The notes under the pieces were generated by a model. It had not been told where the DNA came from. It saw only the letters and a list, made by a program, of their open reading frames with translations, and ran no database searches. Positions 31,467 to 37,499 of a stretch of 64,000 nt of DNA are shown one piece after another; the first letter of the stretch is position 1; every line of letters starts with the position of its first letter. Location: contig CM000436.1 in NCBI GenBank assembly GCA_000165345.1, forward strand, positions 960,001 to 1,024,000, written 5' to 3'. The translations under genes and the position numbers were made by a program.

Positions 31467-34400
31467 ATGTATAGAGAAAGGATTGAAAAGTTATCAGGAT
31501 GGTTAGAAGATCAAGTAGTTAGTGGCCATGTATTTGAAAAGATGAAGGAAATAAGAAATAGAAGAATCACAGATGCAATGATTTTAAGGCCAAATTTAGA
31601 TGATAACCAAGAAAAGGACAATAGTAATGAGAAAAAAAATATTAAAGGTTTAGGAGAAGGAGAAGAGTTGGGAGCAATGGAAATTTATTTGAATCAGGAT
31701 GCAGAAAGGCGAGCAAGACAATTGATTCAGCGTTCAGGGGTAGTACCAGCTTCAATGGATGAATTGAAGAGACAAAATAGAAGACTTAGTCAAATTACTA
31801 ATGGAAATAATGGTAAACAAGATAAAAATGTTAAGAATGAAGTCATAGAAACATGGTTATCAAGTGGAATGATGCCAGGTGATAATCAGATTGATTTACC
31901 AAAAGAGTATAATGAATGGAAAATGCAAAAAATGGTTGAAAATTTGGCTCCTGATTTGAGATTAAGAAAGAAATTATTGGAAAATTCTTTAAACAAGATA
32001 AAAGCTGTTCCAGTTAATGGAGAAGATTTACCAGAAAATATGGTAGATGATGAAAATGTACTACAAAAGAACTTTGAGACTAGTGTGATGTTTGCTCCAC
32101 CTCTGGCAATGCCTGAAATTAAAGTAAAATCTCCAAAAAGGATGATGCACAGTAGAGGTAGAAGTCCTGTAAAACATACATCTCCAAGGAAGATAGGAAT
32201 AGATATGAAAGAAATAGCAAAGGTTGTAGTAAAACAAGTACAAGATACTTTAGAAGCGACTATTGAGAATAGTCAGATTGAGATAGAAGATAAAATAGAT
32301 TCTTTAAATGAATATTTGAAACAATTGGAGGATAAAACTAATTTGATATTGGAAAAAAGCGAGCAAAATAGTCCAAAATTGGAAATTATTAAGAGTGAAT
32401 CATTTAAAGAGAAGGTGGAAGCAGTACCAAAAAAGCAGAATTTATCACTATTATCGCCAGTTAAAAAGAAAATGGAGGCTCCAATTCCTCCAAAGAAGAC
32501 AACAGTTGCTCCAAAATCAACAGAAGTAGAAAAAGAGGAACGTGAACAATCGCACGAGAAAGTAAGTGTAAAATTTTCTCAATATTTTTCAATGTTTAAG
32601 AAAAAAATGTTGAAAAGTTTTAATAGTATCAATGAATTATATCATGAAATGAAACCTGATTCAAATGGAGATATATCAAAACAAAACTTTACCAAATTTT
32701 TAATTAAAAATAAGATCCCAGGAGGAAATATAGAACATGCAAAATTATTTGATGAATTAAAAAGTCAGAGTGGTTTAATTACAAGATTGTCATTATTTAA
32801 GAATATTCATCCATTATATGAGAGTTCTGATCCTTCTTTAGAGGATTTTGTTAAGTTATTAGATGAAATATATGAGGGTTGCGAGATTCCCGTATTAGTT
32901 TCAACATTTAAAGATACATTTTTGAATAAGACAACTTTTGTCAAATTTGGTCAGGATCAACTATTGTTGAGTGAATCAAGTATGGATTATATTTGGAAAA
33001 ATTATTTGAGTTCCGGAGATGTAGGTATTTTCAATACTTCAGATAAATTTATAGAAAAAATAATGAGTATTCGAAAGGAGTTAGGATTAGAAGATTTGGC
33101 TAATGAAGGTATTAATGTTGATATGGAAATTTCTAAAAAGGAGAAAGAAGAAGAAGAAGAAAGAGAAAGAGAAAGAATAAGAATAGAAAAGGAGAAAGAG
33201 GAGGAGGAAGAAAAAGAAAGGGAAAGGGAAAGAATAAGAAAAGAAAAAGAGGAGGAAGAGGAAAGAGAAAGACTAAGAAAAGAAAAGGAGAAAGAGGAGG
33301 AAGAAAAAGAAAGAGAGAGAGAAAGAATAAGAAAAGAAAAGGAGAAAGAGGAGGAGGAAGAAAAAGAAAGAGAGAGAGAAAGAATAAGAAAAGAAAAGGA
33401 AAAAGAGGAAGAGGAAGAAAGGGAGAGAGAAAGAATAAAAATAGAAAAAGAGAGAGAAGAAGAAAAGGAGAAAATAAGACAAGAGATAAAAAAGAAGACT
33501 CCATCAGTTACATCATTATCCTCTGTTTCTTCAGTAAAGTCAAAATCAGTTCAGTCTTCTGCTCCATCATCATCATCTTCTTCATCATCTTCTTCTTCAA
33601 AAAAAAACTCAAAAAATGTTTCATCAATTCCTTCAAAGGAAAACCTATCAGAAATAGAAGTTAGTAGAGGTAGAAGTAGAAGTAGAAGGAATTCATCAAA
33701 GTCCAATTTTTCTGAAAGTAATAGAAATTCTATAATTGGATCATCAGACTCAGAGAAAGATTCAAAAATTGCTTCAAAATCTAAATCGAAGGATAAATTA
33801 AAGTCTGAATCAAAAAATAAATTAAGTTCTGGATCAAATTCAGAAAATAGTATAGAATCAGAATCAAGTTCAAGTTCAAGTTCAAGTTCAGAATCAGGAT
33901 CTAGATCAGCATCTAGATCAGAATCAAATTCTTCATCTAGATCAGAATCTGAATCATCAAATTCTGAAAATGAAATGAAATTGAATAAGAAATTATCATC
34001 AAGTAGTAATATTAATAAGTTAGATTCTCAAACTCAGGAAGATTTGAATAGTTTTGAAAAAGATCCAACAAAAAGAGCAATTTTAATGAATTTAGATCCA
34101 GAAACAGAGAATTTACCACTGGAAGATCGATTAAGAAGCAGAATCAAGGAGGTTTATAAGACAGGAGTTGCTGCATATAAGGAGATGTGTGGCGATAAAT
34201 TTGGTAATAAAAATGCAACATTATCCGAATTTGGAGATTTTATTGAAAAATTGAATATCTTTTTAAGTTTCGCAGAAAGCAAAGAATTTTATGGAAAAAT
34301 TACAAAATCTCAAGGTGGTTCTTTAACTATTGGTTCAATGTATTCATATTTACATAAATTAGAATCAGTTAAAAATGCTGATCCTGAGATAATAGGTAAT

Positions 34401-37400: not shown

Positions 37401-37499
37401 CATAGATTCCAAGATTATGGATTACAATTGTATCACTTTTCACCAAAACATTCAAAGAGATTTAATAGTCCAATTCGCGTAATAAAAGATAAATCTTGA
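31467..37499 (+). CDS. giant 2010-aa protein with an EK-rich repeat, Ser-rich and poly-Asn tracts, and four cyclic-nucleotide-binding-like domains, with no kinase domain
   Basis: The cNBD signatures are IFKQGELAKSFILIFEGSVSL, FINQGDPNAPMVILYKGELSV, and LRFYIVADGEVMIEGV...RYFGEWAIIKGFDERTSNVISKGKKTALLSIPKRDFKRIL. The ORF is continuous with ATG at 31467. Confidence 0.6.
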   Translation: MYRERIEKLSGWLEDQVVSGHVFEKMKEIRNRRITDAMILRPNLDDNQEKDNSNEKKNIKGLGEGEELGAMEIYLNQDAERRARQLIQRSGVVPASMDELKRQNRRLSQITNGNNGKQDKNVKNEVIETWLSSGMMPGDNQIDLPKEYNEWKMQKMVENLAPDLRLRKKLLENSLNKIKAVPVNGEDLPENMVDDENVLQKNFETSVMFAPPLAMPEIKVKSPKRMMHSRGRSPVKHTSPRKIGIDMKEIAKVVVKQVQDTLEATIENSQIEIEDKIDSLNEYLKQLEDKTNLILEKSEQNSPKLEIIKSESFKEKVEAVPKKQNLSLLSPVKKKMEAPIPPKKTTVAPKSTEVEKEEREQSHEKVSVKFSQYFSMFKKKMLKSFNSINELYHEMKPDSNGDISKQNFTKFLIKNKIPGGNIEHAKLFDELKSQSGLITRLSLFKNIHPLYESSDPSLEDFVKLLDEIYEGCEIPVLVSTFKDTFLNKTTFVKFGQDQLLLSESSMDYIWKNYLSSGDVGIFNTSDKFIEKIMSIRKELGLEDLANEGINVDMEISKKEKEEEEERERERIRIEKEKEEEEEKERERERIRKEKEEEEERERLRKEKEKEEEEKERERERIRKEKEKEEEEEKERERERIRKEKEKEEEEERERERIKIEKEREEEKEKIRQEIKKKTPSVTSLSSVSSVKSKSVQSSAPSSSSSSSSSSSKKNSKNVSSIPSKENLSEIEVSRGRSRSRRNSSKSNFSESNRNSIIGSSDSEKDSKIASKSKSKDKLKSESKNKLSSGSNSENSIESESSSSSSSSSESGSRSASRSESNSSSRSESESSNSENEMKLNKKLSSSSNINKLDSQTQEDLNSFEKDPTKRAILMNLDPETENLPLEDRLRSRIKEVYKTGVAAYKEMCGDKFGNKNATLSEFGDFIEKLNIFLSFAESKEFYGKITKSQGGSLTIGSMYSYLHKLESVKNADPEIIGNHLKEIYGTIEEAFKKKDLFDHETIVEEEFIKICIDSGYNQIALKSLFKEMTGNIDGAYVEVQDVIQCLQGHITAKEVYEDESNRNSQWAIWRVVPQRKIPINEDKRKSELNIVIQALTSEKIKEFKGIGREELLHIAENFFMREQLSASSQILAIDEKGYSLSVIVSGAVDSIESLWYGENIIETFKVGDIIGIGMFKSEPSKQFLRTNEETVLWKLSPKIWEIKLKNKINELKDGFLAIEDYFKQDKVFSKLDSNNQKKLYDNSIFTRYPSKTCIFKQGELAKSFILIFEGSVSLIVDEDLTKIPENYRKKSSGTSIGDKYLINRMKYPYSCYCDSECESVIIITISDDIINSVLNDEIKQELIKMDEKLEKKNPIPIQEKLRYPDLKLIPKVGIGKNLKIEKRKKSNNIENEEDNEDGNNDNNNNNNNNNSDSNDESDKDSIDENNNNNNNNNNELSESEKKISLEYLKADIQSRILRKHISLGDCFNYMYEKCVSKENKEKMKNKPPITLFDEESQPDKDLIIKWPKYDKLFIGNWIDTDAFAEYVSEVLHIKATFTDITTIFTNFCSPLDDRLYIGTFYRNFEKISELSLKDFNRRLVEIDGSVFNTFTTVGGVVPGGSISTDTFIVIGGRAGFTRPEATELFLKQIDVLKTKTVSLTTLSKLVSGEISKKEAHEQESGYGLFSMAQDYFGGGGGSVSKLCDSNGVLDYKKLTTKYEDVSCKKEKELKILDNRENIKLLTNLDNIEPLTVLNSNQRIWLISLLERKQVKKGSKFINQGDPNAPMVILYKGELSVMQTGFFGYDSQLEEIIVKEEKDDIKLYGWKEYYSLKQASEVSLVAKNDSIVYLLSRNDIDQIIEMINDRVEKIKNIYLVLLKTPNIRDWPINVLEKFACCLRIEIFMDNDIILEMGPCDTENLRFYIVADGEVMIEGVPMGDMEELSDYTIGRSRYFGEWAIIKGFDERTSNVISKGKKTALLSIPKRDFKRILLLIGDYAIHRFQDYGLQLYHFSPKHSKRFNSPIRVIKDKS
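33133..33504 (+). repeat. imperfect tandem coding repeat of about 57 nt (EKEKEEEEEKERERERIRK)n inside the giant gene
   Basis: The unit aaagaaagagagagagaaagaataagaaaagaaaaggagaaagaggaggaggaagaa recurs. A spurious poly-F/L ORF appears on the opposite strand. Confidence 0.8.
35661..35768 (+). repeat. two (AAT)n poly-Asn coding tracts
   Basis: Direct reading of aat aat aat runs. Confidence 0.8.

Follow-up and report, generated by a model that had tools for sequence, protein, structure and literature searches.

Cyclic-nucleotide signals in Plasmodium are predicted to act through three effectors, namely PKG, PKA and CBP-O, the last of which has four cyclic-nucleotide-binding domains (CNBs) and a degenerate fifth but no catalytic domain (PMC12422582). 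The P. berghei protein (PbCBP-O) is located at the tip of the ookinete and was renamed from 'EPAC' because it lacks all domains of a guanine nucleotide exchange factor (GEF). It is dispensable in blood stages, whereas efficient midgut invasion depends on it; apical targeting needs its N-terminal half, function needs the CNB region, and the protein binds both cAMP and cGMP (PMC12422582). In Toxoplasma, TGME49_219070 forms a punctum at the conoid canopy, and its P. berghei orthologue is found at the apex of all zoite stages (PMC7951837). Single-particle cryo-electron microscopy (cryo-EM) places the Toxoplasma protein, PCR12, in the P2 preconoidal ring with two copies per repeat; its cyclic-nucleotide-binding domains are not resolved in the map, from which the authors infer flexibility (PMC12819142). 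The present study concerns a Cryptosporidium parvum (Cp) gene of this type. It is contained in a window of 64,000 nucleotides (nt) of GenBank assembly GCA_000165345.1 (contig CM000436.1, positions 960,001 to 1,024,000 of the forward strand; all positions below are those of the window) as an open reading frame (ORF) of 2010 amino acids (aa) at 31467-37499 on the + strand. We assign a probability of about 0.82 to the reading that this ORF encodes the C. parvum orthologue of PCR12/CBP-O, i.e. a large, non-catalytic, cyclic-nucleotide-binding component of the apical complex.

Relationship to PCR12 and CBP-O

When the C-terminal 910 aa were compared with the PDB sequences by phmmer, the top match was 9ya0_MA, 'PCR12, TGME49_219070' (E=3e-44); the regulatory domains of PKA-R and PKG reached no better than ~1e-8. 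In the same database, a profile built from five Cryptosporidium orthologues gave collinear matches to PCR12, with the helical part of module A at residues 1047-1177 and module B at residues 2140-2592 (both modules are described below). An exhaustive HMMER search with aa 880-2010 against 1.84 billion representative proteins returned just 12 proteins at E<=1e-10. Outside Cryptosporidium, the best matches were all PCR12/CBP-O proteins, led by those of Besnoitia (5e-50) and T. gondii (1e-35, in a cluster with the 2720-aa protein of ME49) and including those of Eimeria, Cyclospora, Rhytidocystis and Cardiosporidium. Plasmodium CBP-O appeared at 4e-10, just above the 1e-10 threshold, in a cluster that includes a P. 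berghei protein of 3136 aa entitled 'rap guanine nucleotide exchange factor, putative'; the published PbCBP-O residues E3014, R3023, T3024 and Y3062 fit this sequence exactly. Profile-profile alignment by hhalign of the Cryptosporidium family with the coccidian and Cardiosporidium sequences joined Cp 553-1980 to Toxoplasma (Tg) 791-2578 with a probability of 100% (E=1.9e-39, 1255 columns). Judged from these alignments, the homology to PCR12 reaches beyond the generic fold of a cyclic-nucleotide-binding domain (cNBD) into the EF-hand-like modules that precede such domains. A separate observation among the HMMER matches was a metagenomic protein of 1551 aa with nine consecutive high-scoring cNBDs (aa 390-1443), which is unrelated to the PCR12 architecture.

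The forward direction of the orthology was computed here by HMMER, and the reciprocal direction is taken from the literature. In the dataset of Koreny et al. 2021, Cryptosporidium proteins given as 'MYRERIEKLSGWLEDQ...' are the reciprocal-best-BLAST orthologues of TGME49_219070 ('rbh_TGME49_219070', S5; PMC7951837), and Supplementary Table A of Zeng et al. 2025 marks PCR12, like most subunits of the P2 ring, with '+' in C. parvum (PMC12819142). The ORF product is 100% identical to C. parvum XP_627291.1 / EAK89550.1. Its GenBank title reads 'Large protein with 3x cNMP binding domain', and a later annotation of the same protein is entitled 'cAMP/cGMP/EF-hand domain containing protein'. A literature search by accession and for Cryptosporidium-specific work found no paper on this protein. 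The protein is a Cryptosporidium member of the PCR12/CBP-O family that is already annotated and catalogued, and not a new kind of effector.

Domain architecture and the candidate binding site

From the N- to the C-terminus the protein consists of an N-terminal region, an EF-hand-like module, an ER/K repeat with a Ser-rich linker, a unit of EF-hand-like module and two cNBDs (d1 and d2), an Asn-rich linker, and a second unit of EF-hand-like module and two cNBDs (d3 and d4). Pfam cNMP_binding (PF00027; cNMP, cyclic nucleotide monophosphate) matched four stretches of the ORF protein with E=3.7e-23 and 81.7 bits (cutoff 27.5), and the Pfam scan of the whole protein gave nothing else that was significant. 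Scanned singly, each of the four cNBD segments matched PF00027 (E 3e-6 to 8e-5, 23-27 bits); an NCBIfam scan gave just weak, sub-threshold CRP-like matches. Domain boundaries were taken from a family-specific cNBD hidden Markov model (HMM) built iteratively from the collected family sequences. With E values of 6e-11 to 1e-22 it delimits d1 at aa 1100-1202 (34764-35072), d2 at aa 1226-1333 (35142-35465), d3 at aa 1727-1839 (36645-36983) and d4 at aa 1859-1970 (37041-37376), all on the + strand, as are the other features of the gene, and all inside the C-terminal ~910 residues.

The sole canonical phosphate-binding cassette of the protein is that of d4. It is found at 37263-37307 (FGEWAIIKGFDERTS; motif FGEWAIIKG...RTSNVISKG, aa 1933-1953) and provides E1935, R1945 and T1946; the capping Tyr is Y1984 in the helix that follows d4 and aligns with P. 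berghei (Pb) Y3062. All four residues are invariant across five Cryptosporidium species. The cassette also carries a one-residue insertion that is present in all Cryptosporidium species and in no other family member. The cassettes of d1 (IG-IGMF...PSKQ), d2 (IGDKY...PYSC, with Glu replaced by Asp and Arg by Tyr) and d3 (YGWKEYY...QASE) are degenerate, and in every Cryptosporidium species they lack both Glu and Arg. Only one of the four cNBDs, d4, is therefore likely to be binding-competent in the Cryptosporidium protein, as far as cassette residues can tell.

Applied to the relatives, the same HMM finds six domains in a 4 + 2 arrangement in Toxoplasma, Besnoitia, Eimeria and Cardiosporidium, CNB1-3, X and 4 plus a vestige in P. 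berghei, and four domains (2 + 2) in each of three Cryptosporidium species. There is no space for a middle pair in the C. parvum protein because the linker from d2 to the next module comprises only ~120 aa and is rich in Asn. Domain pairing scores connect d3 with Pb CNBX (136), equivalent to Tg d5, and d4 with Pb CNB4 (113), equivalent to Tg d6. An assignment of d1 and d2 to particular Toxoplasma or Plasmodium domains by sequence was rejected, as the scores were low and flat and the neighbour-joining tree was unreliable; these two domains are placed by position only. The HMM alignment shows a degenerate d1 cassette in all family members, and the equivalent of d3 (CNBX) is degenerate in all of them as well, whereas the terminal domain is canonical in every member examined. 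The positional counterparts of d2, Tg d2 and Pb CNB1, have canonical cassettes.

Each pair of cNBDs is preceded by an EF-hand-like helical module, namely module 2 (aa ~885-1060, 34119-34646; the helical part of module A), which aligns to TgPCR12 1047-1177, and module 3 (aa ~1455-1665, 35829-36461; the helical part of module B), which aligns to TgPCR12 ~2140-2330. A third copy, module 1, lies further upstream (aa ~375-535, 32589-33071). By profile comparison the three are related among themselves (E 2e-5 to 1e-4) and to the two modules of Toxoplasma (E 2e-9 to 3e-6); no significant match was obtained by BLASTP when module A was compared with module B, or the N-terminal EF-like module with the remainder. 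The best match of module B in Eimeria and Cardiosporidium is their module A, and the combination of EF-like module, degenerate cNBD and cNBD therefore represents a duplicated unit. The AlphaFold2 (AF2) model of module 1 is a compact helical domain predicted with confidence (predicted local distance difference test score, pLDDT, ~80-89). Its fold matches are weak (best E=0.012) and mostly EF-hands: the calmodulin-like domain of PfCDPK, ACF7 EF1-EF2, calmodulin, centrin and MTIP. The loop of module 1 (KPDSNGDISKQNF) is degenerate, with Lys at position 1 and Asn at position 12, and the PROSITE pattern for the 12-residue Ca2+ loop (PS00018) has no match in any Cryptosporidium orthologue; the Besnoitia and Cardiosporidium members each keep one PROSITE-canonical Ca2+ loop. 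The three helical modules are EF-hand-derived and are devoid of a canonical Ca2+ loop in Cryptosporidium.

Between the folded modules the protein is of low complexity. The charged tandem repeat (aa 556-675, 33132-33491) consists of a 17-aa unit in ~6 copies; Tandem Repeats Finder (TRF) locates it at 33136-33472 with a period of 51 nt and 6.3 copies. Ninety per cent of its residues are charged (60 acidic and 48 basic of 120) and form many i/i+4 pairs of opposite charge, so that a single-alpha-helix spacer of the ER/K type is probably encoded. The repeat is length-polymorphic; the chipmunk genotype has a shorter version, and C. xiaoi, C. ryanae and C. serpentis have none. Although Toxoplasma has an ER/K-rich stretch of similar composition at the equivalent position (~640-900), the Cryptosporidium repeat is lineage-specific. 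It is followed by a Ser-rich linker (aa 681-860, 33507-34046) of poly-Ser and Ser/Arg/Lys/Glu/Asn tracts, with a poly-Ser run at aa 700-711 (TRF 33567-33599) and a Ser-rich stretch at ~aa 733-835. The Asn/Asp-rich linker (aa 1346-1439, 35502-35783), located where coccidians and Plasmodium have two extra cNBDs, contains poly-Asn runs at aa 1399-1410 and 1425-1434 (TRF 35660-35768). Every indel between C. parvum and four C. hominis models falls into the ER/K, Ser or Asn tracts, and the Ser-rich linker, with 28-30% identity, is an indel hotspot. It also holds an RRNS sequence (33684-33695, aa 740-743), present in the chipmunk-genotype orthologue too, that corresponds to the consensus site of basophilic (PKA/PKG-type) kinases; this might reflect PKA/PKG cross-talk or chance occurrence in a Ser/Arg-rich tract. 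The initial annotation, made from the sequence without database searches, had described the ORF, four cNMP-binding regions in its C-terminal ~900 residues with the last as the clearest, the lack of a kinase (see below), the charged repeat and the poly-Ser, Ser-rich and poly-Asn tracts, and in all of this it was correct. Of the checks that it had proposed, the PF00027 search was significant, and inspection of the phosphate-binding cassettes confirmed Glu and Arg for d4 only.

The ratio of non-synonymous to synonymous substitution rates (dN/dS) was determined according to Nei-Gojobori for C. xiaoi versus C. ryanae, a pair for which dS is ~1 and thus close to saturation, so that all ratios are approximate. 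Values of 0.04-0.07 were obtained for EF-like modules A and B, d2, d3 and d4, 0.13 for the N-terminal region, 0.15 for d1, 0.18 for the first (N-terminal) EF-like module and 0.24-0.31 for the low-complexity linkers (Ser-rich linker, 0.31). The lowest value of any domain is that of d4 (0.039), and d2 has a value of 0.055 despite its degenerate cassette. Within the protein, conservation is highest in module 3, which is 77-79% identical to its counterparts in C. xiaoi and C. ryanae and has a dN/dS of 0.042. Purifying selection acts on all folded modules, degenerate cNBDs included, whereas the low-complexity tracts are free to change. The low ratios of the degenerate cNBDs indicate that these domains are maintained and are not decaying.

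From the properties of the homologues we assume the following mode of action. In sporozoites and merozoites, the N-terminal part would fix the protein to the P2 preconoidal ring at the very apex of the cell. The C-terminal sensor units would extend from there on flexible tethers, formed by the ER/K helix and by the presumably disordered Ser and Asn linkers. When cGMP and/or cAMP binds, which in Cryptosporidium probably happens at d4 only, the tandem cNBD/EF-like unit would change its conformation, and the altered unit of d3, d4 and EF-like module could then modulate interactions with apical partners in favour of host-cell invasion. The degenerate cNBDs and the EF-like modules without Ca2+ loop would serve as structural or interaction domains rather than as ligand sensors. 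The role of the N-terminal region (aa 1-365, 31467-32561) in ring anchoring or apical targeting is suggested by analogy to the homologues; the region is conserved within Cryptosporidium and predicted to form isolated long helices separated by disorder. A more specific version of this model is conceivable, if rather doubtful: the protein could be a pared-down apical sensor in which d4 alone couples cGMP/cAMP to the preconoidal ring, with the three conserved pseudo-cNBDs and the three EF-like modules repurposed as docking surfaces or as receptors for a different small ligand. If true, such a single-site sensor would be the simplest natural system for working out the action of PCR12/CBP-O.

Several points weigh against the assignment as a cyclic-nucleotide-binding apical component. 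The C. parvum residues 1-365 have no similarity to the Toxoplasma or Plasmodium N-termini by phmmer or hhalign (E=0.68 and 0.2), and the low-confidence AF2 model of this region gave no Foldseek match at E<=1e-3 and did not retrieve 9ya0. The dN/dS ratios are approximate, given the near-saturated dS. In recombinant PbCBP-O, binding of cyclic nucleotides was detectable for CNB3 only, and deletion of CNB4 alone had no phenotype (PMC12422582). Cryptosporidium lacks the middle pair of cNBDs where CNB3 sits by position, and the one intact cassette, that of d4, is the one with the lineage-specific insertion and has no Pro before the Arg. The findings on the cNBDs, together with the loss of Glu and Arg from three of four cassettes in every Cryptosporidium species and with the conservation of degenerate domains, which shows that cNBD folds without ligand can be useful, would also be in agreement with a purely structural subunit of the preconoidal ring, all cNBDs of which are pseudo-domains for protein-protein interaction. 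We nevertheless regard this as unlikely, since E1935, R1945, T1946 and Y1984 of d4 have all been kept, d4 has the lowest dN/dS of the domains, and the equivalent terminal domain is canonical throughout the examined family.

Other assignments and the structure of the locus

It is very improbable that the ORF encodes a novel, lineage-specific cyclic-nucleotide effector without relation to known apicomplexan proteins. Such a view could refer to the Pfam result (cNMP_binding alone), to the N-terminal third, for which no homologue outside the genus is detectable, and to word-index searches, in which the full-length query retrieved Cryptosporidium proteins only and the C-terminal 572 aa a single fragment; the latter searches are uninformative for distant relatives. 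The sensitive searches, however, revealed collinear homology to TgPCR12 and PbCBP-O that includes the EF-like modules, and the orthology had been published before (Koreny 2021, Zeng 2025). The suggestion of the initial annotation that the protein could be a novel effector or scaffold thus holds in one part: a kinase-less cNMP-binding scaffold is plausible, but it is not novel, as an orthologue of PCR12/CBP-O is already listed. Its expectation that PKG is the only four-cNBD protein of apicomplexans is at variance with the third effector, 'EPAC'/CBP-O, described in the literature (PMC12422582).

An EPAC-type Rap GEF, or a kinase-controlling subunit of the PKA-regulatory or PKG type, is what database titles of the orthologues would suggest: those of Plasmodium are annotated as 'rap guanine nucleotide exchange factor, putative' and those of Eimeria and Cyclospora as 'cAMP-dependent protein kinase regulatory subunit'. 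In its fold, d3-d4 does resemble the tandem CNB-A/B of PKA-R and PKG: the matches that Foldseek retrieved with the AF2 model of module B (moderate confidence, mean pLDDT 63) were PfPKA-R, PKG and TgPKA-R, in each case with the tandem-CNB regulatory module (E 4e-13 to 1e-11). No catalytic or docking domain accompanies this fold. Pfam gave no match at E<=10 to Pkinase across the whole protein, or to RasGEF/CDC25, REM, DEP, RA and RIIa docking domains in the whole protein and in its segments, and the kinase motifs GxGxxG, HRDLKxxN, DFG and APE do not occur in the protein. The ORF stops 40 aa past d4 and leaves no kinase domain C-terminal to the cNBDs as in PKG, and a PKA regulatory subunit is not indicated by a protein with one canonical cassette in four and no RIIa domain. 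Kwecka et al. and Patel et al. came to the same conclusion for Plasmodium, and we consider this assignment extremely unlikely.

An assembly chimera or mis-joined ORF, a concern of the initial annotation because G+C drops from ~0.30 to ~0.24 inside the ORF (0.235-0.244 over 34001-38000), is ruled out for practical purposes. An identical protein is present on three independent C. parvum contigs, and the gene is collinear in C. hominis, the chipmunk genotype, C. xiaoi, C. ryanae and C. serpentis, where its neighbours are conserved as well; in C. xiaoi and C. ryanae, histidyl-tRNA synthetase (HisRS) lies downstream and NAP/WD40/MutS lie upstream. Toxoplasma has the same module order, and the low G+C coincides with coding sequence rich in Asn, Lys and Ile. 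A strong purine (G, A) excess of the + strand, with a GC skew of ~+0.3 and an AT skew of up to +0.3, was seen at 32001-38000 and 48001-62000, where it coincides with long + strand ORFs; within the cNMP-binding gene it tracks Glu/Lys/Asn-rich coding sequence, and the 3' half of the gene also shows the G+C drop to ~0.24. The skew of these two regions is no sign of a foreign insertion.

The ORF is the main exon of the gene and is real, but it probably does not comprise the whole transcription unit. Upstream of it, a mini-exon of 82 nt (31296-31377, +) encodes VQSVKNKNSVFATGSVTTSCSISSTEN plus the first base of a Gly codon and is preceded by a polypyrimidine tract and AG; it is followed by an intron of 75 nt (31378-31452, +; GT(aagt)...AG), the position of which is conserved in three species. 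C. xiaoi and C. ryanae share the exon, the intron position and the residues at the junction (...ENG|[IL]RY[SN][ML]YRERIEKL), and the in-frame G-I-R-Y-S before M1 of C. parvum matches G-L-R-Y-N of these two species. Their start codon is the in-frame ATG of the mini-exon (M[KR]NKNSVFAS...). In C. parvum the same codon is GTA and there is no ATG in the frame of the mini-exon; C. xiaoi and C. ryanae have a Leu in place of the annotated Met (31467). WRK34163.1, the newest annotation for C. parvum, begins with 'IRYSMYRER' and is flagged as partial. Judged from these features, the transcription unit probably extends upstream of the ATG at 31467. Either the start codon may have shifted ~45 codons downstream in the C. 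parvum lineage, or an additional upstream exon may supply the start.

A separate coiled-coil gene is located further upstream (29308-31122, +). It comprises at least three coding pieces, at 29308-30162, at ~30224-30343 (a small exon read in a different frame) and at 30451-31122, and ends in a His/Ser-rich tail (HRSHHSSHHSSHHNTHRSH...). Its product is 83% identical to the N-terminus of a 2418-aa C. xiaoi model and corresponds to two small genes in the C. ryanae annotation. This C. xiaoi model, in which the coiled-coil gene is fused to the cNMP-binding gene, was rejected as an over-merge: both C. parvum and C. ryanae have a conserved His/Ser-rich tail and a stop codon that belong to the upstream gene alone, and in C. 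xiaoi the tail region is frame-broken. Downstream, a convergent gene (37906-40839, -) encodes the 977-aa HisRS that is syntenic in C. xiaoi and C. ryanae. Reading of its translation places the core and the anticodon-binding domain apparently in about the C-terminal half, after an N-terminal extension of ~500 aa without obvious domain.

We did not find described elsewhere the state of four cNBDs with one intact cassette, the three EF-like modules without Ca2+ loop, the purifying selection on degenerate cNBDs and the 5' exon structure. These additions to the known facts of the family are modest and leave the classification unchanged.

Comparison with known systems

Mammalian EPAC1/2 share with the C. 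parvum protein that they are cNMP-binding effectors other than kinases, and the historical label of the Plasmodium orthologue refers to them. The C. parvum protein has none of their DEP, REM, RA and CDC25-homology domains and is not a member of the EPAC family. PKA-R and PKG are closer in the fold of the binding region: the d3-d4 model superposes on the tandem CNBs of PfPKA-R, TgPKA-R and PKG, and d4 combines a PKG-like Thr after the cassette Arg with a Tyr cap like that of PfPKA-R. The C. parvum protein differs from these in that a kinase, a docking/dimerisation domain and an inhibitor sequence next to the cNBDs are all missing, and also in its fivefold size and in the degeneration of three of its four sites. 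Degenerate cNBDs beside functional ones are also known from CNB2 and CNBX of PbCBP-O (PMC12422582).

P. berghei CBP-O (PBANKA_1025300; P. falciparum PF3D7_1417400) resembles the C. parvum protein in the lack of kinase and GEF domains, in the presence of several C-terminal CNBs and in the absence of recognisable domains from the N-terminal half. The equivalence of d3 to CNBX and of d4 to CNB4 extends to the Glu, Arg and Thr of the cassette and to the capping Tyr. Sequence similarity is weak (E=4e-10), and the role in midgut invasion by ookinetes is shown for Plasmodium only. Three of the P. berghei domains, CNB1, CNB3 and CNB4, seem competent, with in vitro binding of cAMP and cGMP for CNB3, compared with one competent-looking site in C. 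parvum. PCR12/CBP-O is one of three predicted cyclic-nucleotide effectors of apicomplexans besides PKG and PKA, and the only one that is built into the invasion apparatus; a single competent-looking site, as against several in the relatives, could ease the mutational dissection of how cNMP binding influences invasion.

The closest described system is Toxoplasma PCR12 (TGME49_219070, PDB 9ya0), a giant non-catalytic protein like that of C. parvum. The C. parvum protein is 700 aa shorter, has four cNBDs instead of six owing to the absent middle pair, and has lost Glu and Arg from d2, which Tg d2 has kept. Its first ~365 aa are without detectable similarity to Toxoplasma, and it has an extra, third EF-like module in its N-terminal part. 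Apart from these differences the two proteins are collinear, with an ER/K-rich region, a unit of EF-like module, degenerate cNBD and cNBD, and a C-terminal unit of EF-like module, degenerate cNBD and canonical cNBD.

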